Source of the DNA: a bacterium
GTDB taxonomy: Bacteria > Patescibacteriota > Minisyncoccia > UBA6257 > GWB1-50-10
Direction of reading: 5' to 3'
NCBI GenBank assembly: GCA_021801565.1
Contig: JAJYXV010000003.1
Coordinates: 132,894-196,893, forward strand
DNA: 64,000 nucleotides
Both the position numbers and the translations under genes were made by a program. The notes beneath the pieces are model-generated. The model was not told the origin of the DNA and made no database searches. It saw nothing but the letters and a program-made list of their open reading frames with translations. Shown here piece by piece: positions 1-46,178 of this stretch (position 1 is the stretch's first letter; every line of letters starts with the position of its first letter).

Positions 1-445
1 CGAGAAAGATCCATTTGGGATCAACTATAATGTGATTCAATCAAAAATTGCAATTGGTTCGGCGGGTTTTTTCGGAAAAGGATTCGGTCTTGGTACGCAA
101 TCGCATCTTCATTTTCTTCCAGAGGCACAAACTGATTTTATTTTTGCCGCATTTGTCGAAGAGTGGGGATTTTTTGGAGGGCTGTGTCTTATTGGAGCAT
201 TTTTCTTCCTTTTATACCGATTTGTGCAAATCGGACTTCGGGTTGGGGATAACTATTCAAAGTTTTTTATACTAGGGGCTGTTATTATCTTTACACTCCA
301 ATTTTTTATAAATATAGGCTCAGATTTGGGACTTATGCCAGTTACTGGTATTACCTTCCCGTTCTTTAGTTATGGAGGATCAAGTCTCTTGACGGCAGGG
401 ATACTTATAAGTATAATTGAGCATATCAAATTTGAATCCCGTTAA
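1..445 (+). CDS. FtsW/RodA/SpoVE-family peptidoglycan glycosyltransferase, C-terminal part (5' end lies outside the window)
   Basis: The reading frame is open from base 2 to the stop at 445. The translation (IGSAGFFGKGFGLG...PEAQTDFIFAAFVEEWGFFGG...GITFPFFSYGGSSLL) matches conserved C-terminal SEDS-family motifs. Confidence 0.75.
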   Translation, partial: EKDPFGINYNVIQSKIAIGSAGFFGKGFGLGTQSHLHFLPEAQTDFIFAAFVEEWGFFGGLCLIGAFFFLLYRFVQIGLRVGDNYSKFFILGAVIIFTLQFFINIGSDLGLMPVTGITFPFFSYGGSSLLTAGILISIIEHIKFESR

Positions 446-480
446 AGAACCGAGGAAGCGCTGTTTTTTGCGCAGTTTAT

Positions 481-506
481 CGTTTTCAAATTTGAAAACG
501 TTTTTC
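481..506 (+). terminator. 20-bp perfect palindrome CGTTTTCAAATTTGAAAACG followed by a T-run, a putative terminator after ftsW/rodA
   Basis: The palindrome and the TTTTTC tract are seen directly. The stem is AT-rich, so this is weak. Confidence 0.3.
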
Positions 507-542
507 AAATGTCTTTGTGATTAAATTTAATTTTTCTTGTAA

Positions 543-1562
543 ATGAATCCTCAACTTAAACAAGAAGGCGCGGTAAATTTTCGTGTGCTTATTTGGCTTT
601 CTATAGTTTTATTTTGCATTATCGTGATTGCATATTTTTTCTATAGTTTGCAGCCAAATAATATTTCAAAAACTGAGCGGGAATTTAAAATTGCAAAAGG
701 GGAAGGACTCCGAGAAATTGGAGCACATCTTTCACAGGAATCTCTCGTGAAGTCGCTTACCATGTTTAAGGTATATGCCTTACTTATTGGAAAGGCTCAG
801 CGATTTCAACCGGGTGCATATATGCTTTCAGATACAATGAGTGTTCCGCAGATTGTGAATGCGCTTACATCAAAAGGAAGAAGCGATGTGCTTGTAACTA
901 TTCCAGAGGGGTCAACACTTGCAGATATTGATTCAATTCTTGCGGATGCAAAGATTACCGAAAAGGGCGCAGTTAAAAATTTTCCAACAAAAAATCTCGC
1001 ATCTGATTATTCGTTTTTGAATAATATTTCTTCTCTTGAAGGATTTCTATTTCCCGATTCATATTATTTTGAGTTGAATTCGTCTCCGGAAAAAGTAGTT
1101 CGGAGAATGCTTGATGTGTTTTCTGAAAAAATGTGGCCGCTTCTTTCTGGAGAAAAAGATTGGTATACGAAGCTTATCCTTTCTTCGTTTCTTGAGAGGG
1201 AAGTTCCTGAATTTGAAGATCGGCAGATTGTTGCGGGAATTCTGTTAAAACGACTTTCTATTAAAATGCCACTGCAAGTTGATGCGACAATCAGTTATGC
1301 GAAATGTGGAGGGCAAATACGCGGATGTAATGATGTATTAGTAACGCGTTCCGATCTTCATATTGCTTCTCCGTATAACACTTACGAACGACTTGGATTG
1401 ACGCCAACGCCGATTTCAAATCCTGGGGAATCAGCTATCCGAGCGGCGCTTTTACCCGAAAAAAGTCAGTATCTCTATTACCTTTCGTCTCCAAAAACAA
1501 AAGAAACACTCTTCTCAAAGACGCTAGAGGAGCACAATATAAAACGCGCAAAATATTTATAA
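543..1562 (+). CDS. mltG: MltG/YceG-like endolytic murein transglycosylase
   Basis: 339 aa with an N-terminal TM helix. The YceG-like core (PGAYMLSDTMSVPQIVNAL ... LSSFLEREVPEFEDRQIVAGILLKRL ... LQVDATISYA) is present. Confidence 0.8.
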   Translation: MNPQLKQEGAVNFRVLIWLSIVLFCIIVIAYFFYSLQPNNISKTEREFKIAKGEGLREIGAHLSQESLVKSLTMFKVYALLIGKAQRFQPGAYMLSDTMSVPQIVNALTSKGRSDVLVTIPEGSTLADIDSILADAKITEKGAVKNFPTKNLASDYSFLNNISSLEGFLFPDSYYFELNSSPEKVVRRMLDVFSEKMWPLLSGEKDWYTKLILSSFLEREVPEFEDRQIVAGILLKRLSIKMPLQVDATISYAKCGGQIRGCNDVLVTRSDLHIASPYNTYERLGLTPTPISNPGESAIRAALLPEKSQYLYYLSSPKTKETLFSKTLEEHNIKRAKYL

Positions 1563-1571
1563 AAAGGTCAT

Positions 1572-4500
1572 ATGGTACAACATTTAAAAACAAAAGTTTT
1601 TTCTTCATATCGCGGCCCGTCACATGAGTCGCCGAATCTCATAGAGATTCAATCAAAGTCGTTTCAGTGGTTCGTCGAAAAAGGACTTCGCGAACTTTTT
1701 GATGAAATTTCTCCAATCAAGGATCACACAGGAGAAGAGCTTGAATTGCATTTCCTTGATTATAAATTTGATCCGCCGAAGTATACAGAGCTTCAAGCAA
1801 AAGAAAAGGATCAAACATATGAAGCAGCTCTTCGGGTAAATTTAAGGCTTATCAATCACCAAACAAAAGAATCTAAAGTGCAGGAGGTATATCTTGGCGA
1901 TTTTCCGATTATGACCGAACGCGGAACATTCATTATTAACGGGGTTGAACGTGTGGTCATTTCCCAGCTCATTCGTTCTCCCGGTGTGTACTTTCTTATG
2001 AATATATTCCGTGGAAGGAAATTGTTTAGCGCAAAAGTAATTCCAAATCGCGGGGTGTGGCTTGAAATTGAAACGGAAGCCGATGGATTCCTCGGAGTAA
2101 AAATCGATCGAAAAAGAAAGGCTCCGGTAACCGAATTGTTGCGTATTTTTGGTATTGAAACTCCAGAAGAAATTTTGAAAACATTCGCGGACGTTGATAC
2201 GGGGAAAATAAAATATATTGAAACAACTCTCAAAAAGGACGAAGCAAAGACAGTTGAGGATTCATATTTGGAAATTTATCGGCGTCTTCGTCCTGGAGAT
2301 CTTGTAACCTCAGAAAGCGCGCACGCAATCATTGAACCGATGTTTTTCCGTTTTGATCGATACGATTTGAGCAAGGTAGGAAGATATAAAATAAACCAGC
2401 GACTTGGATTTACAAAAAAGAATTCGGGGCTTTTAGATCGTGAAGATCTCGTAGATATTGTGAAAGAAGTAATTCGACTGAACAATAATCAATTTGCAAA
2501 ACCTGATGATATCGACCATTTAGGAAATAGAAGAATCCGGGCGGTTGGTGAATTAGTGCAGGCAAGGCTTCGTGTGGGGTTTGCAAGACTGAGGAGGGGA
2601 GTACAAGACAGGATGTCGACGTTTGATAGAAACGGTCTTCAGCCTGTGCAACTTATTAATTATAAATTACTCACTGCAGTGGTACGGGACTTTTTTGCAT
2701 CATCCCAGTTATCTCAATTTATGGATCAGGTGAATCCTCTCGCGGAACTTGAACACAAAAGACGCCTTTCCACAATGGGTCCTGGTGGACTTACGCGGGA
2801 ACGAGCCGGATTTGAAGTTCGCGATGTGCACAGTTCATATTATGGACGTATTTGTCCAATTCAAACTCCGGAAGGTTCAAGTATTGGACTTGTAAGTTAT
2901 CTTTCAAGTTATGCTCGTCTCAATGAGTTTGGGTTTTTAGAGACGCCATATTTTAAAGTTGAAAATAGTACAGTAAAAAACGAGGTGATATGGCTTGATG
3001 CATTCAGTGAACAAAAATATAATATTGCCCAGTCTGATGTAAAACTTGATGACCATAATAAAATTGTTGAAAAAAGAATTCCTGCCCGTATTGGTGGTGT
3101 TGCGGGAATGTGTGAACGAGATGAAGTTCATTTCATTGATGTGTCACCAAATCAATCAGTAAGTATTTCAACATCACTTGTTCCATTTTTGGAACACAAT
3201 GATGCAAACCGTGCACTCATGGCATCAAACATGCAACGACAAGCAGTTCCCCCCATTTATGCGGAAGCCCCACTTGTTGGAACTGGACAAGAAGAACGCG
3301 CTGCGCGCGATTCTGCTCAAATGATTATTTCTGATGTCGATGGTGTAGTGCTTGAAGCAGACGCCGATGCGGTAGTAATAAAAACCGAAACTGGAAAAAA
3401 GACATTTTCACTTTTGAAGTTCAAGCGATCAAACCAATCAACATGTATTTCACAACGTCCAATAGTGGAAGTAGGACAAAAAGTGAAAAAAGGAACAATA
3501 CTTGCCGATGGCCCCGCGACTTCAAATGGAATACTGAGTCTGGGAAGAAATCTGTTAGTTGCATTTGTTCCATGGCAGGGAGGAAATTTCGAAGATGCTA
3601 TTGTTCTTTCTGAAAGAGTAGCAAAAGACGATTTCTTTACTTCCATTCATATTGAAACATGGGTATGTTCTGTACGTGACACAAAACTTGGCCCTGAAAT
3701 GACAACGCCGGATATTCCGAATGTTTCTGAAGATAAGCTGAGAAATCTTGATGAAGAGGGAATTATTCGCATTGGGGCAGAAGTAAGAGAAAATGACATT
3801 CTTGTCGGGAAAATTTCTCCGAAGGGTGAATCAGAACTTACTTCTGAGGAACGATTGTTAAGAGCAATTTTTGGTGAGAAAGCGCGAGATGTGAAAGATA
3901 CTTCGCTTACACTTCCTCATGGAAAACAGGGGAGGGTTATTGGAATTAAAATATTTTCGCGCGACCGAGGAGACAAACTTGAACCAGGAATTATAAAGAA
4001 AATTCAAGTTGAAGTCGCACAACTCAGAAAAATTCGTGCAGGAGATAAACTTGCCGGACGGTATGGAAATAAGGGTGTTATCTCAACCATTCGTCCAGTG
4101 GAAGATATGCCGTATTTGGAGGACGGAACTCCGGTGGATGTGGTGTTAAATCCGTTGGGTGTTGCATCGCGTATGAACCTTGGACAAATCATGGAAACCC
4201 ATCTTGGACTCGCTGCACATACATTAGGATATCGCGCAGTTGTTCCCGGGTTTATTGGCGGAACCGAAGGAAATATACGGGATGAATTAAAAGCCGCGGG
4301 ATTTCCCGAAGAGGGGAAGATAAAACTTTATGACGGACTTACTGGTCAATCATTTCGACAAGCTATTACTGTCGGATACATCTATATTATGAAACTAAAT
4401 CATCTTGTTGAAGATAAAATTCATATGCGTTCAACTGGTCCATATTCATTAATTACTCAGCAGCCGCTCGGAGGAAAGGCACAGCTTGGAGGACAACGAT

Positions 4501-36358: not shown

Positions 36359-36395
36359 CCACTATGATGCGTCATAGTGGCTTTTGTGTCTTAGG
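36359..36395 (+). terminator. palindrome ccactatga-tgcg-tcatagtgg followed by CTTTTGTG (same family as 28815)
   Basis: Seen directly, downstream of the MTase gene. Confidence 0.45.
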
Positions 36396-37136
36396 TTTTA
36401 TATTTTTGTTGACGAAGATGTATTTATGTTTTATTCTTTTGATAGATATTTTAAACATAGTGGAGAAATAATGGATAAGGAAAAATTACAACAGAGAATT
36501 GCTGAACTATTAAGTGGTATTGGAGCAATTCATAATCAAGGTTCTTTTCTCCGTCTTCTTCTCGTGTTACTCAAATTGCGGAAGATTAAAGAAAAGCCAT
36601 ATCAATGGGCAGTCACTAAGGTTCTTATGGAATTACTCAACGTTCTTCCAAGGCAAGTGCCAAAGTGGAAAGGGGATTCGATTGAAATTTGTCAAAAAAT
36701 TGCACTTGATATTTTTTCGACACTTTCCGATATGGAAATAAAGGAAGTAAAGGGAGTGATTGAAAATCTTCTTCCGGAACGCGAAAAAATAAGGACTTTT
36801 GTAAAACATACCATAAGAACAAAAGTGAAAGATGCGTGGAATAATCTTGATGAAGAAATGACGGATGAAAAACGAATTTTTGAAGCAGCAAACGAGGCTT
36901 GTGCGATGGATCAGCTTGATGCGTTCAAATTTTTCAATCGTCTGAATAATTCTGTTCATTCGTTTTATGAAATAATGAAAAAATACCTTGAGGCAGAAAA
37001 GTTTGAAAGAGTTGAGGAAAACGATCGTTGTATCATAGGACGGAAGGGGAATCGCTGTATTATAATTACTGCAACGATTTCTCAAGGATACGTTTATGTT
37101 GGAATTGATACACTTTTTATTCCTCCCCAGAGATAA
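36384..37136 (+). CDS. hypothetical protein
   Basis: 250-aa ORF followed by the terminator aaccccttttcacaaggggttttt (37142-37167). Confidence 0.3.
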   Translation: MCLRFYIFVDEDVFMFYSFDRYFKHSGEIMDKEKLQQRIAELLSGIGAIHNQGSFLRLLLVLLKLRKIKEKPYQWAVTKVLMELLNVLPRQVPKWKGDSIEICQKIALDIFSTLSDMEIKEVKGVIENLLPEREKIRTFVKHTIRTKVKDAWNNLDEEMTDEKRIFEAANEACAMDQLDAFKFFNRLNNSVHSFYEIMKKYLEAEKFERVEENDRCIIGRKGNRCIIITATISQGYVYVGIDTLFIPPQR

Positions 37137-37592: not shown

Positions 37593-37663
37593 TGCGGGAT
37601 CGTCTAATGGTAGGACAGCGGACTCTGAATCCGTCAATCTTGGTTCGAATCCAGGTCCCGCAG
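37593..37663 (+). tRNA. tRNA-Gln (anticodon CTG)
   Basis: The acceptor stem is tgcggga/tcccgca, the D-arm gtct-aatggta-ggac, and the T-arm cttgg-ttcgaat-ccagg. The anticodon loop ctCTGaa has stem gcgga/tccgt. Confidence 0.8.
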
Positions 37664-37765
37664 CACGAGTCAGCACGGTATCGAGGCAAGACCACCTTGC
37701 CTCAGCAACGACCGACTTTCTCCGTCCTTGAAAATGTCATACCGGCTGAGTGCCGTATTCAAGAC

Positions 37766-37798
37766 AAAAGGCCGCCGATACATCGGCGGCCTTTTGTC
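37766..37798 (+). terminator. strong rho-independent terminator aaaggccgccgat-a-catcggcggccttt followed by a T-run
   Basis: A 13-bp GC-rich stem followed by TTTTGTCTG. Confidence 0.7.
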
Positions 37799-37864
37799 TG
37801 TGCAGCTTAGGCTTGACTCCAAAACCATATTCATATATTCTTTTAATGCAGAAGATTTGAATAC

Positions 37865-38230
37865 TTGAATATGGCAAAGGCACACATTATAACAAAAGAT
37901 GGCACGAAAGTAACAATCGAAGGTACCCCTCAGGAGGTGGCTTCTTTAGTCACGCAATTAAAGGGAGGGATACCGCAGACTTCTGTCATATCAAAAACAA
38001 CTAAAAAACACAAAGGACAGGCAAAAGCTACCCCAGTAAACCTAATATCCGAATTTATTGATGGAGGTTTTTTTAAGAAACCTAAAGAGCTTGGCGCTAT
38101 AAAAATTGCGCTCGAGGAGCAGGGACACTACTATCCAGTTACCTCGCTATCCCCGGCGTTGTTGCGACTCGTTCGTAAACGACAACTACGACGAATCAAA
38201 GATAAGAAACGTTGGTTATATGTTAATTAA
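37865..38230 (+). CDS. island paralogous-family protein 1 (shared ~60-aa GFF...GY..S.L..AL.R module)
   Basis: LISEFIDGGFFKKPKELGAIKIALEEQGHYYPVTSLSPALLRLVRKRQLRR aligns with the corresponding segment in the next three genes. Confidence 0.45.
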   Translation: MNMAKAHIITKDGTKVTIEGTPQEVASLVTQLKGGIPQTSVISKTTKKHKGQAKATPVNLISEFIDGGFFKKPKELGAIKIALEEQGHYYPVTSLSPALLRLVRKRQLRRIKDKKRWLYVN

Positions 38231-38235
38231 AATAT

Positions 38236-38562
38236 ATGTCTAAAGAAGAAAAAACAATTAAGGATTTACTAACTCGAGTTAAGAAACTCGAAAAGACTGT
38301 TTTTGCCGAGAATAAGGCAAAACCAAAGCTTGATAATAAGCAAATCTTTGTAGGAGCAACAGGTGGATTAAGGCTTTTAATATCTAAAGGATTTTTTGAT
38401 AAAAAAAGAAGTTTCGGGGAAATAAAAAAAGCACTCGCAGACCGGGATTATCACTATAGTAATCAGGCGATACAAACACCCCTTAATAAACTCTCAAGGA
38501 TTGGAGGGCTATTAGTGGGCTTAAAAGAGAGTGGTAAGAAAGCTTATGCAAAAAGAAAATAA
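38236..38562 (+). CDS. island paralogous-family protein 2
   Basis: LLISKGFFDKKRSFGEIKKALADRDYHYSNQAIQTPLNKLSRIG is present. Confidence 0.45.
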   Translation: MSKEEKTIKDLLTRVKKLEKTVFAENKAKPKLDNKQIFVGATGGLRLLISKGFFDKKRSFGEIKKALADRDYHYSNQAIQTPLNKLSRIGGLLVGLKESGKKAYAKRK

Positions 38563-38794
38563 TAAAATTGCAAAGAGTGCCCCGGATAGTCTAAAACTTC
38601 TTTGGTTAAAAGGTTTTTTTAAGTCGTGGAAAAATTATGGCCAAATTGTCAAAAATTTATCCGGTCAAGGATATAACTTTTCAATGCCAGAATTAGGCAT
38701 GGCGTTAAAACGTGCAAAGCATCTTACTAGGAGAGGTAAAAGAACCGGCTATGAGTATATTCAAAAGTATCCCTTTACCTCAGATGAAAAATAA
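38546..38794 (+). CDS. island paralogous-family protein 3
   Basis: LLWLKGFFKSWKNYGQIVKNLSGQGYNFSMPELGMALKRAKHLTRRG is present. The start is chosen at the ATG overlapping the upstream stop. Confidence 0.45.
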   Translation: MQKENNKIAKSAPDSLKLLWLKGFFKSWKNYGQIVKNLSGQGYNFSMPELGMALKRAKHLTRRGKRTGYEYIQKYPFTSDEK

Positions 38795-39473
38795 GAACTC
38801 AATTTCACTACCAGAATTATTGAAAGTCCTTTGGCAGGAAGGATTCTTTTCAGATGAAAAAGAGCTTTCAGAGATATCTGGAGGTTTTGCTGCAAAAGGT
38901 TATCATTTTAAATCTTCAAGTCTCAGTGTGGCCCTTATACGCGCAGTCAAATCAAGTGGGTTTTTGAATAGGATAAAAGAGTCTGGTAAATGGAAATATA
39001 TTCAGAAACATCCAATAACATCGCCATCTGGGCAACGCATTGCTTTGTTCGAAAGATACGACTTGCATCCCAAAGTAAAAGAGGTTGCCTTCAAACAGTT
39101 TGAAGATGGGTATTTTAAAGAAGCAATTCAGAATGCGCTTGTCGAAGTTATTGAGCAAGTAAAAATCAAAGCAAAAAGACCTAAAAATGCAAATGGACAT
39201 GATCTCGATGGAGATGACCTAATGAACCAGGTTTTTGGTTGCGATAATCAACATCCTAAAATTAAATTTAATAATTTAAAAACAAGTCTTGATAAAGCAG
39301 AACAAAGAGGGCTAATGAATTTATTCAAGGGAATCGTCGGAATTAGAGACAAAAAAGCCCATCTTAATTTTATACAAAAAGATCATCTTAAAACTATTGA
39401 ATATTTATCTCTCGCTAGTTTATTAATGCGGCTTTTAGATGAATTTGCCTTAACTCGCAGGAAAGATAAATAA
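38784..39473 (+). CDS. island paralogous-family protein 4 with a C-terminal TIGR02391/Hypoth_Ymh (Abi_C-like) domain
   Basis: The N-terminus carries LLKVLWQEGFFSDEKELSEISGGFAAKGYHFKSSSLSVALIRAV. The C-terminus carries FEDGYFKEAIQNALVEVIE...GHDLDGDDLMNQVFG...IKFNNLKTSLDKAEQRGLMNLFKGIVGIRDKKAHL...YLSLASLLMRLLDE. I recognise this from memory as the TIGR02391/Abi_C pattern. It has not been verified. Confidence 0.5.
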   Translation: MKNKNSISLPELLKVLWQEGFFSDEKELSEISGGFAAKGYHFKSSSLSVALIRAVKSSGFLNRIKESGKWKYIQKHPITSPSGQRIALFERYDLHPKVKEVAFKQFEDGYFKEAIQNALVEVIEQVKIKAKRPKNANGHDLDGDDLMNQVFGCDNQHPKIKFNNLKTSLDKAEQRGLMNLFKGIVGIRDKKAHLNFIQKDHLKTIEYLSLASLLMRLLDEFALTRRKDK

Positions 39474-39474
39474 T

Positions 39475-40215
39475 ATGGATTTTTCGAAAAATATAAGAGC
39501 ATTTTTAAGCAGTTTGCCGATAAAAGATTTGAGTGGCCACCAAATTTTTTTGGCAATAGCGACTTATTGTGCGAGCGGTGACACTTCTGATCAAGTTAAC
39601 ATTGCTGATGTACGCGATAGATGGCCAATGTCCTTATTAAGGAAAAAATATAATACAAATTTTTATACCCGAGCCCAAACGGAAGGATGGGTTGATCCAG
39701 TTGGGCAAGGGATTTTTATTATAAAAGATGAAGGATTACAACATCTCGAAGATTTAGTTGGATCTATCAATAAGAACATTGCTTCTTTAAACAATACTGG
39801 CCTTTTTATTTTTGATAAAAAAGATACCCACTCTTTTGATAAATTTTTGCGCACTATTTTTGCAAATGCCAAATCCAGAGTGCTTATAGCAGATTCTTGG
39901 GTTGATGAAACAATTTTTGACAATGTACTTGATAGTATTCCTAAAACACTTGATATCAACTTAATTTATGGCCAAAAGAAAGGAATATTTGATAGTCGTA
40001 TAGTCCGCTTTAAAAAACAATATTCAAAGTTTGTTGTTAAAAGATATAAAGATCTTCATGATAGATTTTTAATCGTTGATAATATGGGTTGCGTCATAGG
40101 CCCATCTTTAAAAAATGCTGCCGAGAAAAGTCCCGCCTTGATAGTTGTTCTGGACAAAAAGGATTCTTTGCTATTAATTAAATTTTTCCAAGTGTTATGG
40201 AAAAAGGCAAAGTAG
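39475..40215 (+). CDS. hypothetical protein with a degenerate PLD/HKD-like motif (HDRFLIVDNMGCVIGPSLKN)
   Basis: 246 aa, translationally coupled to the previous gene (TAATATG). A single HxR-x4-D-x6-G-x-S-x2-N motif lies near the C-terminus. The assignment is weak. Confidence 0.35.
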   Translation: MDFSKNIRAFLSSLPIKDLSGHQIFLAIATYCASGDTSDQVNIADVRDRWPMSLLRKKYNTNFYTRAQTEGWVDPVGQGIFIIKDEGLQHLEDLVGSINKNIASLNNTGLFIFDKKDTHSFDKFLRTIFANAKSRVLIADSWVDETIFDNVLDSIPKTLDINLIYGQKKGIFDSRIVRFKKQYSKFVVKRYKDLHDRFLIVDNMGCVIGPSLKNAAEKSPALIVVLDKKDSLLLIKFFQVLWKKAK

Positions 40216-40243
40216 ATTTTATTAAATAATTTTATTCACATCT

Positions 40244-41605
40244 TTAGCTGACCAATAATATCTCTTTCTCTTTTAGTAGAATTTTGTTTTTTATACAGTT
40301 CAGTAATTCACGCTTTTCTTCAATAGTTCCATGGCTTAAGACGTGATTTGAATACCGCTTTGCATCAAAGTCTTTTTCTAGTGATCCATCATTGTGGATA
40401 TTTAGAAATGATTTTTGGAATTTTGTCATTCGCTTATACTCTTCATCAAATTTCTTTTTGATGACGCCCTCATTCATCTCCAGCTCCCCAATAACTGCGA
40501 CCAATTGCTTGATTACTTCCTCTTCTCGGATATACCCTTCCTTACATTGAAGGTTTCGTGATCGATTGCAACCATAGTAGACATAGTGAGCCACATCGCC
40601 GTTGGCGAGTTTTTTATATTTATCTTCAGCGGTTACGCCTGATCCGCATCGCCCACAAGTCATTATTCGTGAAAATACGAATTGTTTATCTGTGTATTTA
40701 ATTTCCGATCGCTTTAATTTTTCTCGCGCTTTCTCAAACACTTCTCTTGTGATAAGAGGTGTATGTTGTCCCTTATACCAATTTCCACTACCCATCGGAT
40801 ATTCAAACGTTCCATAGAAAAAGGGTGTTTGCAGTAAGCGATAGATGTTACTCAGCGTGAGTGGTTTATTACTCGTTGCACTCCGAAAATTCATATCAAA
40901 TTTCAGCCAGTGATATATTTTTCTTCCGCTCCATCCTTCAAATGCAACTTTCTCAAACATCTGTTTTATAACTGGCGCTCGTTCGGGATCAACCATCACA
41001 TATCCTTTCCGATCAATTCGTTTTTCATTTAAATATCCTGTTGGAGCGGGTGCGGGCCATAATCCCATTTCACAGCGCATTCGCAATCCTCGTTTTACAT
41101 TTACGCTCTTGTTATCATTTTCCAGTTTTGCCTGTGAGCACAAAATCATTAGAAGAAACTTCTCATTCGGAGAATTTGTGAAATGCTGGCCGTATGTTTT
41201 TATCTCGAGCAGCAACTTCTGATCCATAAGATCAACAAGTGATCCCAAATCTCCAGCGTTTCTTGATAATCTATCCGGCGCCCATGTGAGTATCCCTGTA
41301 TATCGTCCGCTTCGAATATCTTTAACGATTTCGTTAAAAACTGGACGCTCGCCAGAATCTTTCGCCGAATGTGATTCTCTCCGAATATCCACAATCTCCA
41401 GTCCATCACGTTCGGCAAGCTGAAGCATCTCTTTAATCTGTGAATCAATAGAGAGAACTTGCCGCTCTTCACTCTCTGTCGATTTCCGAGCATAGAGACA
41501 GTATCTAACCTTTACTGGAAGCTCTGTGGATCTTTGAGCCTGAGCTCCTACCGACCCCACTGATTGTTGTGATGTATTCATACAACACAAGGGAGCCGGA
41601 ACCAT
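40244..41605 (-). CDS. large serine recombinase (phiC31-type integrase family)
   Basis: The N-terminal resolvase catalytic domain (YCLYARKSTESEERQVLSIDSQ ... RLSRNAGD) is followed by a recombinase domain and a zinc ribbon (CGRCGS...YYGCN). 453 aa. Confidence 0.85.
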   Translation of the reverse strand: MVPAPLCCMNTSQQSVGSVGAQAQRSTELPVKVRYCLYARKSTESEERQVLSIDSQIKEMLQLAERDGLEIVDIRRESHSAKDSGERPVFNEIVKDIRSGRYTGILTWAPDRLSRNAGDLGSLVDLMDQKLLLEIKTYGQHFTNSPNEKFLLMILCSQAKLENDNKSVNVKRGLRMRCEMGLWPAPAPTGYLNEKRIDRKGYVMVDPERAPVIKQMFEKVAFEGWSGRKIYHWLKFDMNFRSATSNKPLTLSNIYRLLQTPFFYGTFEYPMGSGNWYKGQHTPLITREVFEKAREKLKRSEIKYTDKQFVFSRIMTCGRCGSGVTAEDKYKKLANGDVAHYVYYGCNRSRNLQCKEGYIREEEVIKQLVAVIGELEMNEGVIKKKFDEEYKRMTKFQKSFLNIHNDGSLEKDFDAKRYSNHVLSHGTIEEKRELLNCIKNKILLKEKEILLVS

Positions 41606-41786
41606 TCAAACAAGTCCAGATGTATGAAGTGGATAACTTACTTTACTTCTTTCCTGAAATACGCGAGGAATACAAAATATGGAAATAAAGGTCGAAATGC
41701 GCTAAAATTTATTAACAATTGAATAGCCTTAATATACATAAGGCAGGATCTAAACCATCGGAGTAATTCGGTAGCATGATCTAAAA

Positions 41787-41830
41787 ACGTTTCACAGTAT
41801 TAAGCTCCTCGTCAGAGCACTGTGAAACGT
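41787..41830. promoter_or_regulatory. 12-bp perfect inverted repeat ACGTTTCACAGT-N20-ACTGTGAAACGT in the divergent promoter region between the recombinase and protease genes
   Basis: Arms at 41787-41798 and 41819-41830, reverse complement checked. Confidence 0.5.
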
Positions 41831-41847
41831 CATACAGGGAAACTTGT

Positions 41848-42915
41848 ATGGGTGGAGAAATCCATCGCTGGCGGGGAGCTTTATGTTTTCCGCCAGAACA
41901 GAATCACGATGCGAATATGAATTTAAAGAGTATAAAGATAAACTCAAAAATTTTTATAGCAGGTGGAATAATTGTTCTTATATTACTTGGCATATTGGGC
42001 ACATTTGTTGTGATTGATAAATTTAGAAGTTATCAAAGAGAACAATCAGAAAAAAATGCGCAAGCAACAGAAAATCTTGCTTTGCAACAAAAAACGCTTG
42101 ATGAAGCAAGACAGGAAATCGAGAAACTCAAATCAGAAAATAAAAATATTGACCAAAAAATAGAGCAGAAATCAAATGAATTAAGCCGAGTAGTTGCCAA
42201 AGCAGTGCAGAATAATTCACAGCAGGGATCAGTGGAATCTACGATCCAGGCAAGTGAGATAAATCAGTACCTATCTGGCGTTGGAGAAATTATATGTTAT
42301 GGCGATGTACAGAAAAGTGGGAGCGCTTCGCTTTGGAAGTTTGGTAATGATGGCTATGTTTTAACGAACTACCATGTAATATCAGGTCCAGGAAATTGCA
42401 ATCTAACTATTGATGGTAATGGCGTGTATAAACTTGATAAAACGAGTGTCCGATCATGGAATTCCGCGACCGATGTTGCGGTGGTGAAAATAGCTCCCTT
42501 TGGAGAAATGGCAGATATTTCATCTCCAATATCAGAGTTGAATTACAGCATTTCATATTTAAAGGAGTGTCCGGCAAAAATGCCACTTGGTTCTCCAGTT
42601 ATAGCTATAGGATTTCCGGCATATTCCAGAACCACAACCATGATTAATGGAGTGGCGAGCAGCCACTCTCAACGGACAATTACAAATGGCATTATCAGTG
42701 CGTACGATGATTCGGTTCAAATGCCAATAGGTAGTTTACCTAACGTAAATTATTTTGTTTCAGCAAAAATAGATAGTGGTAACTCCGGAGGTATTACTTT
42801 TTCTAAAAATGAAAACGGTCTTTGTCTTTTGGGCATCCCAACATGGTTATCACTTGGAAAATTTGAAGCAGGAGGTCTCATACAGAATATTTTTAATGTT
42901 TTATACGAGAAATGA
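41848..42915 (+). CDS. membrane-anchored trypsin-like (S1 family) serine protease with a coiled-coil linker
   Basis: A TM helix and a coiled coil are followed by the catalytic His (LTNYHVISG), Asp (DVAVVKIA) and Ser (GNSGGITF). The likely true start is MNLKSIK (41917). Confidence 0.6.
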   Translation: MGGEIHRWRGALCFPPEQNHDANMNLKSIKINSKIFIAGGIIVLILLGILGTFVVIDKFRSYQREQSEKNAQATENLALQQKTLDEARQEIEKLKSENKNIDQKIEQKSNELSRVVAKAVQNNSQQGSVESTIQASEINQYLSGVGEIICYGDVQKSGSASLWKFGNDGYVLTNYHVISGPGNCNLTIDGNGVYKLDKTSVRSWNSATDVAVVKIAPFGEMADISSPISELNYSISYLKECPAKMPLGSPVIAIGFPAYSRTTTMINGVASSHSQRTITNGIISAYDDSVQMPIGSLPNVNYFVSAKIDSGNSGGITFSKNENGLCLLGIPTWLSLGKFEAGGLIQNIFNVLYEK

Positions 42916-43229
42916 AAAATACTCAAGACTACAAAACTATAGCGGGCGCATGGAAGATTGCTCAAGAATTTGCCGATGCAGAAGCAAAAAATGCAGAATC
43001 TTTTTATTCACTCAATAATACCTTGCCATACAAAAAAGATATTATCGCGTTAGCACTATTAAATCTCCTCACCTCGAATGATTTTAGAAATGAGCTGTTG
43101 TGCAAAGGAGAAGGGGGCGAAAAAATTCTGCAAACAATATCAAGTCTTATGTTCAGCTTAGCTACTGCATATTTTCCAGACGAAACGGAGTATCGAGAAC
43201 TAATCGAGACAAAAAAATTAATGGACTAA
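42912..43229 (+). CDS. hypothetical protein
   Basis: 105-aa ORF. Confidence 0.3.
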   Translation: MKNTQDYKTIAGAWKIAQEFADAEAKNAESFYSLNNTLPYKKDIIALALLNLLTSNDFRNELLCKGEGGEKILQTISSLMFSLATAYFPDETEYRELIETKKLMD

Positions 43230-44308
43230 GATCTTTTCCTACTTGATGACTCAAGCATTTTTCTAACGGCGGCACCCAAAAGATCTTCGTTTACAATGGG
43301 AACATCAATACAATATCCAGCCATGAAGGGCGAAGTCGGTTCTAATCTTTTGCAGGGACATGGTATTTTTTCTTTTGCGGGAAATTGAGCTATCAATTCT
43401 TTATCACACTCCCTAAGATTGTATCGGAAGGTACCCATATGTAATAGATACTCTTGTCGCCAGACATAATCATCAAGTTTTTCCTGTAGAGTTTTAATAC
43501 TTTCCGGAGTTGAAAATTTTTCTGGCCATAAAATCTTTTCGTGTTTATCGAGCAGAGGGTATGCTCTGAAGGCTCCCTTTAATCTTCCTTTTTCTATATT
43601 TTCTTTTATGTTCATCATAAAAGAATTGGCATGAACAAGATTTCCAACGATCATAATTTTTGTGTTTTCATCGCCGATAGGTAAAATTTCAGATTGGAAC
43701 CATTGATATGTCTCATCTCTTTCGCGTAGGCTAATAGATTTCGCATCTTCAATATCATCAATGATAATTAAATCGGGGCGATGTTGGCCATGTTTAATCC
43801 CTCTAATGCTTTGTCCACTTGAAATAGCAATAATACGAGCTCCCACCAAAGGAAGTTCAATACTCAATGCTCCCCATTCACTTTTATTGTCGATCTTGAA
43901 AGGACCAAGGTCGCCTCGTAATAATTTATTATTTTCCAGTTCATGACATATGTGAGAAAGAAGCGTTTTCACCTGTTGTTGGCTTTTGCTTATCATTACC
44001 ACGCATTTCTTTTGCTGTATTCCTAAGATTGCCCATAACACATAAGAAAGGCTTATAATGGTTGATTTACCTCCGCCTCTGAAGGCCATAATCGCAATAA
44101 CGTTATAGACAGTATCTTCAGTCAATAAAAACATCTCCTTTTGGAATGGAGCAAACTTATAACCAAAATGGTGGTTCAAAAATATGAGAGAAAACCACAC
44201 ATGACTCCTAAAAACGAGATGCCGGCGAACCGCTTTGTCGGTAATGATCTTATCTCTCATTTTTTCAATTTCTGTTTGATTCGAGTTTTTTGAATAGGTT
44301 GAATTCAT
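43226..44308 (-). CDS. phage terminase large subunit-like protein (ATPase domain; short)
   Basis: Walker A (AFRGGGKST) and Walker B (PDLIIIDDIEDA) in terminase-like spacing. It is translationally coupled to the upstream small-subunit-like gene. Confidence 0.6.
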   Translation of the reverse strand: MNSTYSKNSNQTEIEKMRDKIITDKAVRRHLVFRSHVWFSLIFLNHHFGYKFAPFQKEMFLLTEDTVYNVIAIMAFRGGGKSTIISLSYVLWAILGIQQKKCVVMISKSQQQVKTLLSHICHELENNKLLRGDLGPFKIDNKSEWGALSIELPLVGARIIAISSGQSIRGIKHGQHRPDLIIIDDIEDAKSISLRERDETYQWFQSEILPIGDENTKIMIVGNLVHANSFMMNIKENIEKGRLKGAFRAYPLLDKHEKILWPEKFSTPESIKTLQEKLDDYVWRQEYLLHMGTFRYNLRECDKELIAQFPAKEKIPCPCKRLEPTSPFMAGYCIDVPIVNEDLLGAAVRKMLESSSRKRS

Positions 44309-44706
44309 TTTGGAGAAAATAATTGAATTGCCCTTTCCACAGTCTCCCTTTGCTCTTGGACAAGTTCTTCTTCGACGATGGGTTTTGTGGCAATCTCAAC
44401 TCGTAATGCATATTTCGGATGGTGATGGCGAAGCCATAAGTGGATCGCTGAAAAGTTTTTATCTTTAATCATTGAGATGAGTTGTGCTTCGCTTAGATCA
44501 TTTATCGATTCTTCACCCTCTTCGATCGCTTTATCTATGGCAGAAGCAAATTCTTTATCCTCGATTTTCCATCGATAAAAACTAGCCCTGCTTATTCCTG
44601 CCTTAAGGCATGCAACTTGAATAATCGGAAATTTCTTCAACTGTTCAAGCAAACTTTCTTTTTCTTTTTGTTGACGTTCTTTAATTGTATCGTTATCGTT
44701 TTCCAT
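44305..44706 (-). CDS. phage terminase small subunit-like protein (HTH)
   Basis: The HTH VACLKAGISRASFYRWKIEDKEF is present. The gene sits directly upstream of the TerL-like gene. Confidence 0.5.
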   Translation of the reverse strand: MENDNDTIKERQQKEKESLLEQLKKFPIIQVACLKAGISRASFYRWKIEDKEFASAIDKAIEEGEESINDLSEAQLISMIKDKNFSAIHLWLRHHHPKYALRVEIATKPIVEEELVQEQRETVERAIQLFSPK

Positions 44707-45006: not shown

Positions 45007-45246
45007 CTAGCCCTTATATTTTTCTGGATCTTCGCCGTAAGTGTATTCTCTCTCGATTACATTTTTCTTATTATGGATCTTAATCTGACCAAGATTGCAA
45101 TTTTCAAGAATATCTCTTGCGGCCTGGATTGCGTCAAGTTTATTCTGCACTACGACGGCAGCGCGTTGCGTTCCCTCGCGCTTAGCTGCCCATTCAATTC
45201 CATTTTCGGTAAATCGGGGCGTAATGTGGTAAACTACTCTTTTCAT
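45007..45246 (-). CDS. hypothetical protein
   Basis: 79-aa ORF. Confidence 0.3.
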   Translation of the reverse strand: MKRVVYHITPRFTENGIEWAAKREGTQRAAVVVQNKLDAIQAARDILENCNLGQIKIHNKKNVIEREYTYGEDPEKYKG

Positions 45247-45812
45247 GTGCTATACTGTTATTGCATGTAACACGACCTTTGGTCGTAAACGAAAAACCGG
45301 AGCCGTTATCATCGGTTCCGGTTTTTCTAATATTAGTTGTGTATTTGAAGAATCGGAGGAAGGTTAGGTCTTGGTCGCAAAAATTGTGCTTTGAGGTAAC
45401 CTCCGATGATAGGGTCTGACTAGTTCTGACTTTTCAATTTACTCTTACATTATAGCGCATTTTTCGAAAATTTTCAATCTTTGATCCGACATAAGCCAAG
45501 ACCTAGAGGGGTCAGAAAAATGCTAGAACGCAACGCAAAAAAGCCTTATACTGATTGAAGAGTTGTGGCACTAGACCACACAACACAGCATATGCAAAGC
45601 CGCTTGCCTTTTTAGGTGAGCGGCTTTGCATTATATTGTTGGTCTGGATTCGAACGGGAAAAGGGTTGGGAAAACGGAAGTTTTCCTGTGGTGGAGGTAC
45701 TGGAACCGCAAGGTGTCAGAAAATTTTGAGAATACAAAATTTTGTTTGATTGCCAGGTCCCGCAGCACTTCGGCAAGCTCAGTGCAAGCACATCTGAGAG
45801 GTATAATAAAAA

Positions 45813-46102
45813 CATGTGGTATATATGCATGCTTTTTTGTGATCAGAAGACTTTTTACGTCGGGATAACTGATGATCCGAAAAAGAGATTAGTAGAACAT
45901 CGAAGGGGGTGCTCATTTTATACAAAAAAGTTTTCTGATCTAGAGTTCATATTATTGTGAACAATATTCGAGTAAGCATGAAGCTGCCTTGCGGGAAAGA
46001 CAAATCAAGGGATGGGCGAGAGCAAAGAAGCAGATGTTATTAGATGGTAAGCTTGGGTATAATATTTGTACTGAGATTGTCGAAGCTCTTCGGAATGGAT
46101 GA
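45813..46102 (+). pseudogene. GIY-YIG nuclease family gene (COG2827-like), copy 3, frameshifted
   Basis: The N-terminal part MWYICMLFCDQKTFYVGITDDPKKRLVEHRRG is in frame 0 and stops at 45960. The C-terminal part HEAALRERQIKGWARAKKQMLLDGKLGYN continues in frame 2 to the TGA at 46100. Confidence 0.55.
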
Positions 46103-46138
46103 CTTGCCCTGAGTATACCGAAGGGAATCCCTGTCCGG

Positions 46139-46178
46139 CAGCACGAGTCGGTGCAGTATCGAGTGAGAATGGAGAGCG
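46139..46178 (+). repeat. 40-bp direct repeat copy A (CAGCACGAGTCGGTGCAGTATCGAGTGAGAATGGAGAGCG)
   Basis: Identical to 47101-47140. It is related (21/26) to the sequence immediately 3' of tRNA-Gln (37661-37686). Confidence 0.85.

Follow-up and report, generated by a model that had tools for sequence, protein, structure and literature searches.

Does a run of small, partly paralogous genes downstream of a tRNA gene form a functional system, does it move as one, and what would it be for? The question is raised by five co-directional genes at 37871-40215 of the 64,000-nucleotide stretch of an uncultivated Patescibacteria genome analysed here (the window; contig JAJYXV010000003.1, positions 132,894 to 196,893), which a first-pass annotation, made from the letters alone, had marked as a candidate defence or satellite module. 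What we find is a genuine operon, mobile and widespread, and a candidate conflict system in which known effector folds are combined with new partner proteins. Sequence, fold and context lead us to propose that it is an autoregulated conflict system borne by a mobile element, with the emphasis on defence by abortive infection, a reading to which we give a probability of about one half. We call the genes G1 to G5 in operon order; types of gene in this and related loci are called m1, m2 and m3 (proteins consisting of a winged helix-turn-helix, wHTH, only), Y (the Ymh protein, as G4), P (G5-type) and n5 (G5 N-domain type).

Gene products of the operon

All five open reading frames (ORFs) of the first-pass annotation are present, and one start was revised. 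For G1, the frame proposed at 37865-38230 stands (TTG 37865 is in frame), but the start does not, and translation most likely begins at ATG 37871 (119 amino acids, MAKAH), as in every homologue. The genes are tightly packed: G1 and G2 are separated by a gap of 5 nt, G2 and G3 overlap by 17 nt, G3 and G4 overlap by 11 nt, and a gap of 1 nt lies between G4 and G5. A promoter and terminator scan found no internal terminator-like sites on the coding strand of the operon.

G4 (38784..39473, + strand, 229 amino acids, type Y) is composed of an m-type wHTH (approximately residues 6-80) and a Hypoth_Ymh HEPN domain (residues 93-218). The earlier assignment of its C-terminus to Hypoth_Ymh/TIGR02391 was confirmed with profile hidden Markov models: PF09509 matches with an E-value of 4.6e-22 and 78.6 bits (cut-off 25) over profile positions 2-119 of 119, and TIGR02391 matches with 54 bits (cut-off 39.45). 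The strings quoted for the protein, GDDLMNQVF, LFKGIVGIRDKKAH and YLSLASLLMRLLDE, are all found in it. The label 'Abi_C-like' holds at the level of the HEPN clan only; Pfam Abi_C (PF14355) gave no match in G4 at E up to 1. The Ymh domain shows the all-alpha arrangement of the HEPN fold, and its R-x4-H motif consists of R188 (39345-39347) and H193 (39360-39362) within GIRDKKAH; both residues are unchanged in 26 of 26 G4 homologues with 64-86% identity. G4 is predicted to be a Ymh-type HEPN RNase with R-x4-H as its motif. A search of a 90%-clustered database gave 419 homologues at E up to 1e-3, the best 120 of which are full-length, share 64-86% identity and come chiefly from Patescibacteria; one homologue carries the JGI label 'predicted transcriptional regulator'. 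On PLSDB plasmids G4 has distant TIGR02391 matches only; one of them, on a Delftia plasmid, is close to genes for a tyrosine recombinase and a TrlF ATPase. Ymh domains are known solely from conflict contexts (PMC3710099).

G5 (39475..40215, + strand, 246 amino acids, type P) is a two-domain protein (AlphaFold2 pLDDT 85) with an acidic n5-type wHTH of about 98 residues (1-98) and an HDR-type PLD-fold domain (residues 107-244). Of the earlier description as a protein with a degenerate PLD-like motif, the PLD fold holds and 'degenerate' does not: H-x-R is invariant in the family and represents a conserved variant. The motif reads H195-D196-R197 (40057-40065)-x4-D202-x6-G209-P-S-x-K213 and departs from the canonical H-x-K-x4-D-x6-G(S/T)xN in that the lysine is invariantly replaced by arginine. 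Across G5 homologues with 47-81% identity the H, D and R, D140 and the stretch GPSxKxAA..SPA are invariant. The HDR variant of the PLD fold has been defined by HDR before strand beta-5 and an acidic residue (D/E) after beta-2 (PMC12065111), and G5 accordingly has an invariant LHDRF and an invariant D140 in ADSWVD. This variant, also written HRD, was described for PB-PLD1 of Menshen NsnC, for roughly one in three type-1 BrxL proteins (at the C-terminus) and for MIT_C of MITD1, and it is predicted to be a nuclease effector in NsnC and BrxL (PMC12065111; PMC12839542).

The best match of G5 among PDB sequences is MITD1, albeit a weak one; in the alignment VLIADSYV stands opposite VWIEDPYI, and MITD1 has IHDREI. 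Top fold matches include FAM83, MITD1 and TrmB/TrmBL2. Against Pfam PLDc_2, G5 scores 12.6 bits with an E-value of 0.12, below the cut-off of 27; 16 of 26 homologues have a PLD Pfam match at E up to 1 (best E 1.3e-6), and the PADLOC model of NsnC matches G5 at 1.5e-6. G5 is predicted to be a single-domain HDR-variant PLD phosphodiesterase. It has 144 homologues; a tblastn search of PLSDB plasmids with G5 gave no match, and Virulence_RhuM was found neither in G5 nor in 26 homologues.

The remaining three proteins are small. G1 (37871..38230, + strand, m1 type) carries a conserved beta-beta-alpha motif at its N-terminus, joined by a Lys-rich linker to a basic wHTH with a pI of 10.2; G2 (38236..38562, + strand, 108 amino acids, m2 type) has an N-terminal helix followed by a basic wHTH, and G3 (38546..38794, + strand, 82 amino acids, m3 type) is a wHTH only. 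The first-pass annotation had recognised a module shared by G1 to G4, and this paralogy is far beyond chance, with pairwise BLASTP E-values of 1e-5 to 9e-15. The module was assigned to the wHTH fold. The closest pair is G3 and the N-terminus of G4 (40% identity over 78 residues, 9e-15), and when 75 small paralogues of related loci are combined in one profile, hhalign aligns it with the G4-family N-terminus at a probability of 99.2% and an E-value of 1.7e-19. All m-type wHTHs are basic (pI around 10) and the G5 N-domain is acidic (pI 5.5). The idea that G5 contains a fifth copy of the module was rejected, homology between m-type and n5-type wHTHs being undetected (hhalign probability <1%).

G1 is the most conserved component, its wHTH sharing 80-97% identity among homologues of several phyla. 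The types m1, m2 and m3 are separate orthologous subfamilies, each of which is kept at distant loci, and therefore they are not redundant copies; m3 sits directly 5' of the Ymh gene at several loci. No Pfam, NCBIfam, PADLOC or PHROG model covers the small proteins G1-G3. The same libraries, searched with G1-G3, with a 143-amino acid n5 protein and with partner proteins of 276-279 amino acids, returned sub-threshold noise only (PAZ_2, Mac, ThiS, TelK_muzzle), and the m-wHTH family profile found nothing significant among PDB sequences. As a separate observation, the m1 N-terminus MAKAHITTKDGTKITIEGTPEEVAALI (G1 residues 1-30, 37871-37960) shows conservation across phyla, and this short segment has a strand-turn-strand-helix pattern similar to that of the first half of a ubiquitin-like beta-grasp.

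Mobile unit, modular family and operator-like repeat

The five genes and a large serine recombinase form a unit of 4,065 bp (37661..41725), as judged from its identity with a contig from an independent ENA metagenome assembly (L003). Positions 379-4443 of that contig are 100% identical to the unit; its left flank (1-378) matches nothing in the window, and the contig ends at the position matching 41725. The recombinase (40244..41605, - strand, 453 amino acids) is convergent with the operon and contains Resolvase, Recombinase and Zn_ribbon_recom domains, with CcrB-like and XisF-like NCBIfam matches. On the left, the identity begins at 37661, within the final bases of tRNA-Gln(CTG) (37593..37664, + strand; ARAGORN, Rfam tRNA 61.8 bits), the 3' end of which constitutes the left junction. 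The earlier placement of the genes on a mobile element is thus upheld by the recurrence of 4,065 bp with a different left flank, and relatives of the operon adjoin serine or tyrosine recombinases, tRNAs, type II restriction-modification (R-M) genes, Mrr and Shedu. The operon appears to be the sole cargo of a serine-recombinase integrative element of about 4.07 kb inserted at the tRNA-Gln 3' end, and the functional unit includes the recombinase.

In the metagenome contig the alternative flank is a loosely similar sequence ending in CAGCAC, in which no tRNA was detected. This flank (L003 1-378) ends in ...GGTTCTAGCTCGAGACGCTCAGCAC, loosely like the T-arm and acceptor end of tRNA-Gln (GGTTCGAATCCAGGTCCCGCAGCAC), and may represent either a fragment of a decayed tRNA or a secondary site resembling attB. 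On the right the unit ends 22 nt before a full-length LOOT RNA gene, which lies outside it (41747..41866, + strand; Rfam RF03000, 88.2 bits over the full model, gathering threshold 46.4). A LOOT RNA is also found at locus L121 (2410-2531, - strand, 80.4 bits), about 1.3 kb past the recombinase and with a tRNA on the opposite side, so that LOOT RNAs adjoin both loci, this and the window, that pair a large serine recombinase with a G5-type block. The RNA may be an integration-site landmark; literature searches gave no account of its function.

The designation 'satellite' is unsupported. The terminase genes terS and terL lie outside 37661-41725, the unit has no replication gene, and no relatives of the G4, G5 and m-wHTH families were found in IMG/VR.

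How widespread the components are is best seen from the small wHTH profile, which matches 990 clusters at 90% identity and, in an exhaustive search of representatives, 1,791 clusters at 50% identity (E up to 1e-3), 301 of them at E up to 1e-10. Nearly all members have 65-160 amino acids; every one is named 'hypothetical protein', and none belongs to a Pfam, NCBIfam, PADLOC or PHROG family. Three kinds of fusion, and no others, occur among the best matches: with a Ymh HEPN domain, with one C-domain of unknown kind and with another copy of the module itself. We collected 125 loci, 93 of them non-redundant, and typed their ORFs with jackhmmer; partner genes were counted for the 34 G5-type genes of the non-redundant set that have at least 1.5 kb of upstream sequence. 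Genes encoding wHTH-only partners accompany 29 of these 34. A stand-alone paralogue of the G5 N-domain (n5, about 143 amino acids, hhalign probability 99.1%) is encoded directly upstream in 24 cases, and one to three m-type genes are present in 23. Within the family loci, genes overlap or lie 1-6 nt apart.

The exact five-gene layout does not recur: m1-m2-m3-Y-P is unique to the window element among the 93 loci. The commonest full form is m1-m3-m2-n5-P, without a Ymh protein; one locus (L032) has the order m1-m-m-n5-P-Y, followed by an Mrr-like gene. In L006-L012 an m1-m2-m3-Y block (72-87% identity) precedes a type II restriction endonuclease (PADLOC 6.3e-92) and a methyltransferase, with no G5. 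Other Ymh genes are preceded by a gene for an n5-domain protein of 276-287 amino acids and adjoin a serine recombinase and conjugation genes. These loci make up a large, unnamed family built from modules, of which the operon shows one permutation.

Among 150 non-redundant neighbours within 2.5 kb, the most frequent families are Phage_integrase (6), N6_N4_Mtase (5), Resolvase (4), ResIII (3) and NYN (3); Shedu SduA, MmeI, TdeIII and a Schlafen-type helicase occur once each. Genes for tRNAs flank many loci, and tRNA-Gln recurs for Ymh-type loci. Two neighbourhoods are of separate note. At L082 (4220-5452) Shedu SduA (PF14082, 5e-26) starts within the last codons of a G5-type gene. At L119 (3601-5818), directly 5' of an m1-m-n5-P operon, a LexA_DNA_bind-Peptidase_S24-N6_N4_Mtase fusion of 472 amino acids is encoded together with HTH_3 and Endonuclease_7 in an unusual R-M-like arrangement.

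Upstream of G1, a consensus scan located a single sigma-70-like promoter 5' of the operon (37813..37841, + strand; TTGACT, 17-nt spacer, TATTCT), and the regions upstream of orthologous operons retain the TTGAC box; for the promoter and terminator scan as a whole, the number of sites was no higher than in shuffles. A perfect 18-bp terminator-like hairpin (37762..37799, + strand, 100% complementary) lies 5' of the promoter, and a partial Rfam match to CsrC spans only this hairpin. An operator-like inverted repeat (37826..37873) has the arms CATATTCATATATTC (37826-37840) and GAATACTTGAATATG (37859-37873) with an 18-nt spacer; its left arm overlaps the -10 box and its right arm the ATG of G1. Zero-mismatch matches to CATATTCANNTATTC in the window are confined to these two arms, on opposite strands.

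The pattern TATTC..GAATA was found in 10 of 71 upstream regions, where 500 shuffles gave 0.6 on average and never more than 4, and it occurs at the equivalent position in the orthologous operons L006, L050, L051, L074, L080 and L089, which belong to very different genomes across phyla. The TATTC/GAATA motif goes with m1 proteins that have the recognition helix LSPxLLRxVRxR, whereas those with the helix LSGVxLGLV have a TATTGCAATA palindrome instead; in L020 and L041 another inverted repeat flanks the -35 box. Because of this co-variation of operator and helix, and because of the high conservation of the G1 wHTH, we propose G1 as the best candidate for an autoregulator of the operon.

Proposed function in relation to known systems

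In the conflict system that we propose, G1 would bind the TATTC/GAATA repeat, which spans the -10 box and the start codon of G1 itself, and would thereby repress the operon. G2 and G3 would be non-redundant wHTH-only paralogues complexed with the effectors via their wHTH domains; G3 would act as a free copy of the N-domain of G4, and n5, at other loci, as a free copy of the N-domain of G5. The effectors would be G4, as a HEPN RNase, and G5, as an HDR-PLD phosphodiesterase. HEPN and PLD folds normally homodimerise to build the active site. Because the active sites normally span the homodimer, heterotypic pairing of the effector wHTHs with wHTH-only paralogues could hold the effectors in an inactive or tethered state. 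They would be set free by phage infection, or by decay of the small proteins once the element is lost, and would then cut RNA and DNA and bring about abortive infection or post-segregational growth arrest.

In agreement with the first-pass annotation, no known complete defence system was matched by the PADLOC, Pfam, NCBIfam and PHROG models. Matches to PADLOC are at the level of domains and involve defence proteins only, namely PD-Lambda-3_B, Aga_HEPN, PDC-S05, NsnC and MkoB. The C-domain of G4 resembles the Ymh HEPN proteins of R-M and abortive-infection contexts (PMC3710099) over its full length and in R-x4-H, and its relatives likewise adjoin type II R-M genes. Unlike in those proteins, the partner N-domain belongs to a new wHTH family rather than to paraMORC, AbiJ-NTD or AbiTii, and the gene is embedded in an array of stand-alone wHTH paralogues. 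Of PD-Lambda-3, only the Ymh part of gene B is matched (positions 158-262 of 270), and G1-G3 do not match gene A. The operon also differs from the systems with HEPN proteins associated with prokaryotic Argonautes (PADLOC) in having no Argonaute.

G5 shares the HDR-PLD domain with Menshen NsnC, but its N-domain is an acidic wHTH where NsnC has an inactive PIN domain, and neither NsnA (ParB-DUF262) nor NsnB was matched in the operon or its neighbours (PADLOC, Pfam). BrxL, which has the same HDR variant, carries an AAA+ domain instead of the acidic wHTH of G5, and there are no BREX genes in the operon. The MIT_C domain of human MITD1 is an HDR-variant PLD domain like that of G5. Catalytic activity of this variant is putative, in G5 as in every other protein that has it. 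The two PADLOC models of the defence candidate PDC-S05 match G5 residues 96-229 (6.7e-18 and 1.2e-15), the match being restricted to model positions 158-290 of 306 (the C-terminal 43% or so, about 130 residues). PDC-S05 is a single-gene candidate in PADLOC, without wHTH partner genes. One of its representatives protected E. coli against T7, T5 and T4, plating being reduced about 1000-fold for T7 and T5 (10.1101/2024.09.26.614923).

With regard to mobility, the operon is similar to the loci of the RADS survey in having a large serine recombinase as the immediate neighbour of candidate defence genes. Recombinases of this type have been published as markers of defence cargo, and the survey makes no mention of HEPN, PLD or winged-helix proteins of this kind (PMC12632615). 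Our literature searches found no description of the five-gene operon. The effector domains belong to known kinds. Of the two wHTH families, of their organisation in arrays and of the pairing with effectors, the libraries and literature searched contain no description.

Several points weigh against a nuclease-based defence system. MITD1, the closest solved HDR-PLD relative, binds membranes and has, to our knowledge, no catalytic activity. FAM83 and TrmB/TrmBL2, also top fold matches, are non-catalytic. The putative pairing of wHTH-only proteins with effectors is deduced solely from paralogy and gene adjacency, and the defence role of the whole family is something that we infer. Common descent could account for part of the co-variation between operator and helix, and a conservation of 80-97% in G1 is unusual for a phage sensor and fits a regulator better. 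The second context of the unit comes from one short metagenome contig that is possibly chimeric. Finally, the PDC-S05 representative that was tested is described with a RhuM domain and may differ from the G5 protein (10.1101/2024.09.26.614923).

Should the operon function as proposed, a widespread system would be added to what is known of defence and addiction in Patescibacteria and soil bacteria. The wHTH family, with about 1,800 clusters at 50% identity, occurs almost solely in uncultivated lineages, for which few defence systems other than R-M have been described. The operon would also be a natural test case for catalysis by the HDR-PLD domain common to NsnC, BrxL and human MITD1, and would illustrate a new regulatory logic, with effectors under the control of free-standing versions of the domain that targets them. 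With its integrase and one operon, the 4-kb element is compact and experimentally tractable, and the operator-like repeat and G1 form a testable protein-DNA pair. A bolder generalisation, which we put forward tentatively and with considerable doubt, is that the family constitutes an unrecognised class of immune or conflict systems in which nuclease effectors (HEPN, HDR-PLD and possibly an adjacent restriction endonuclease) are gated by stand-alone paralogues of their own wHTH N-domains. A hetero-oligomer of three to four distinct wHTH subunits would then serve as a DNA-bound sensor and autoregulator, and the class would have spread across Patescibacteria, Acidobacteriota, Verrucomicrobiota and Proteobacteria as the sole cargo of minimal serine-recombinase elements targeting tRNA or LOOT RNA loci.

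Of the alternatives, a toxin-antitoxin (TA) module with the main task of stabilising the element by addiction, rather than stopping phages, fares best, although we regard it as unlikely. G4 and G5 would be the toxins and G1-G3 labile antitoxins and autorepressors, and loss of the element would lead to post-segregational killing. Such a role would suit an operon that is the only cargo of a 4-kb element, and the arrangement is similar to type II TA operons and C-protein R-M systems: DNA-binding genes come first, an inverted repeat covers the promoter, as is typical of type II TA autoregulation, and nuclease effectors follow downstream on a mobile carrier. Small basic DNA-binding proteins encoded 5' of a HEPN-type toxin and free copies of effector N-domains directly upstream of the effectors point the same way. 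However, the operon has three distinct DNA-binding paralogues and two wHTH-fused effectors, and a TA module seldom requires as many as three different antitoxin-like paralogues, each conserved on its own. Known antitoxin and C-protein families gave no match in the operon (Pfam, PADLOC, NCBIfam). MNT, the known antitoxin partner of HEPN, is absent from it, which sets it apart from the HEPN-MNT modules (type VII TA) with their nucleotidyltransferase domain. The block 5' of type II R-M genes and the defence-island-like surroundings fit immunity at least equally well. Addiction and immunity are not mutually exclusive roles.

We consider it decidedly unlikely that the operon is a non-catalytic, regulatory or chromatin-like module in which G1-G4 would be transcription factors and G5 a protein similar to TrmB/TrmBL2 with a ligand- or DNA-binding PLD-like domain, controlling excision, transfer, silencing or the adjacent R-M genes. 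The non-catalytic nature of FAM83 and MITD1 among the top fold matches, the operator-like repeat, the JGI label on one G4 homologue and the position of the block directly 5' of the R-M pair in L006 agree with such a role, but the invariant R-x4-H of G4 and the invariant H-D-R, D140 and GPSxK of G5 favour active sites over scaffolds. The resemblance of G5 to the archaeal TrmB/TrmBL2 regulators is one of fold and architecture only: TrmB is without the conserved H-D-R, D and K, and its wHTH is basic and DNA-binding, unlike the acidic N-domain of G5. The TrmB wHTH and Regulator_TrmB models did not match G5 and matched 1 of 26 homologues at E 0.006. Moreover, the restriction of Ymh domains to conflict contexts (PMC3710099) argues against a purely regulatory role, and so does the presence of the block without adjoining R-M or transfer genes, as in the window.

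Least probable, and very much so, is a gathering of two or three independent one- or two-gene defence units (G3 with G4, a PDC-S05-like G5, and G1/G2 as regulators) in an integration hotspot, for although the combinatorial layout (G5-type genes without Ymh and Ymh without G5), the different gene order in L032 and the single-gene PDC-S05 candidate of PADLOC would be in line with it, the genes overlap or nearly abut behind a single promoter-like site with no internal terminator, m-type, wHTH-only genes often accompany both effector types (29 of 34 G5-type loci), and the whole block moves with the recombinase as one unit.

Features flanking the unit

An island of 8.4 kb, ending at tRNA-Gln-like repeats of 31-50 nt (45738-45768 and 46114-46163), was considered as the extent of the element and rejected, as the metagenome contig shows the current unit to end near 41725. 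The region of these repeats contains a decayed second copy of a GIY-YIG gene and tRNA-Gln (45770-46163), consisting of a GIY-YIG-like ORF (45742-45960) and a relic of the tRNA-Gln 3' end. The relic (46114-46163) is 82% identical to 37636-37685, including 19 nt beyond the tRNA end, and a further tRNA-Gln-like relic of 31 nt is found at 45738-45768. The decayed copy suggests repeated integration at tRNA-Gln.

Adjoining the 4-kb unit, and outside it, is a prophage remnant on the - strand that comprises a truncated terL (43226-44308, 360 amino acids, ATPase part only; PHROG 38, 2.9e-37), the terminase small subunit gene terS (44305-44706, 133 amino acids) and a DUF2188 gene (45007-45246). Between the unit and this remnant, an ORF for a trypsin-like protease (41848-42915, + strand) encodes an N-terminal transmembrane or coiled-coil segment. 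Since the ORF as annotated begins within the LOOT RNA, translation probably starts at an internal ATG near 41917 (MNLKSIK...). On the other side, 5' of a GIY-YIG gene, an ORF of 250 amino acids (36384-37136, + strand) weakly matches C-terminal domain 11 of the ABC-3C conflict systems (E 0.0016) and PADLOC WH_III-A (E 2e-4), both below the cut-offs.

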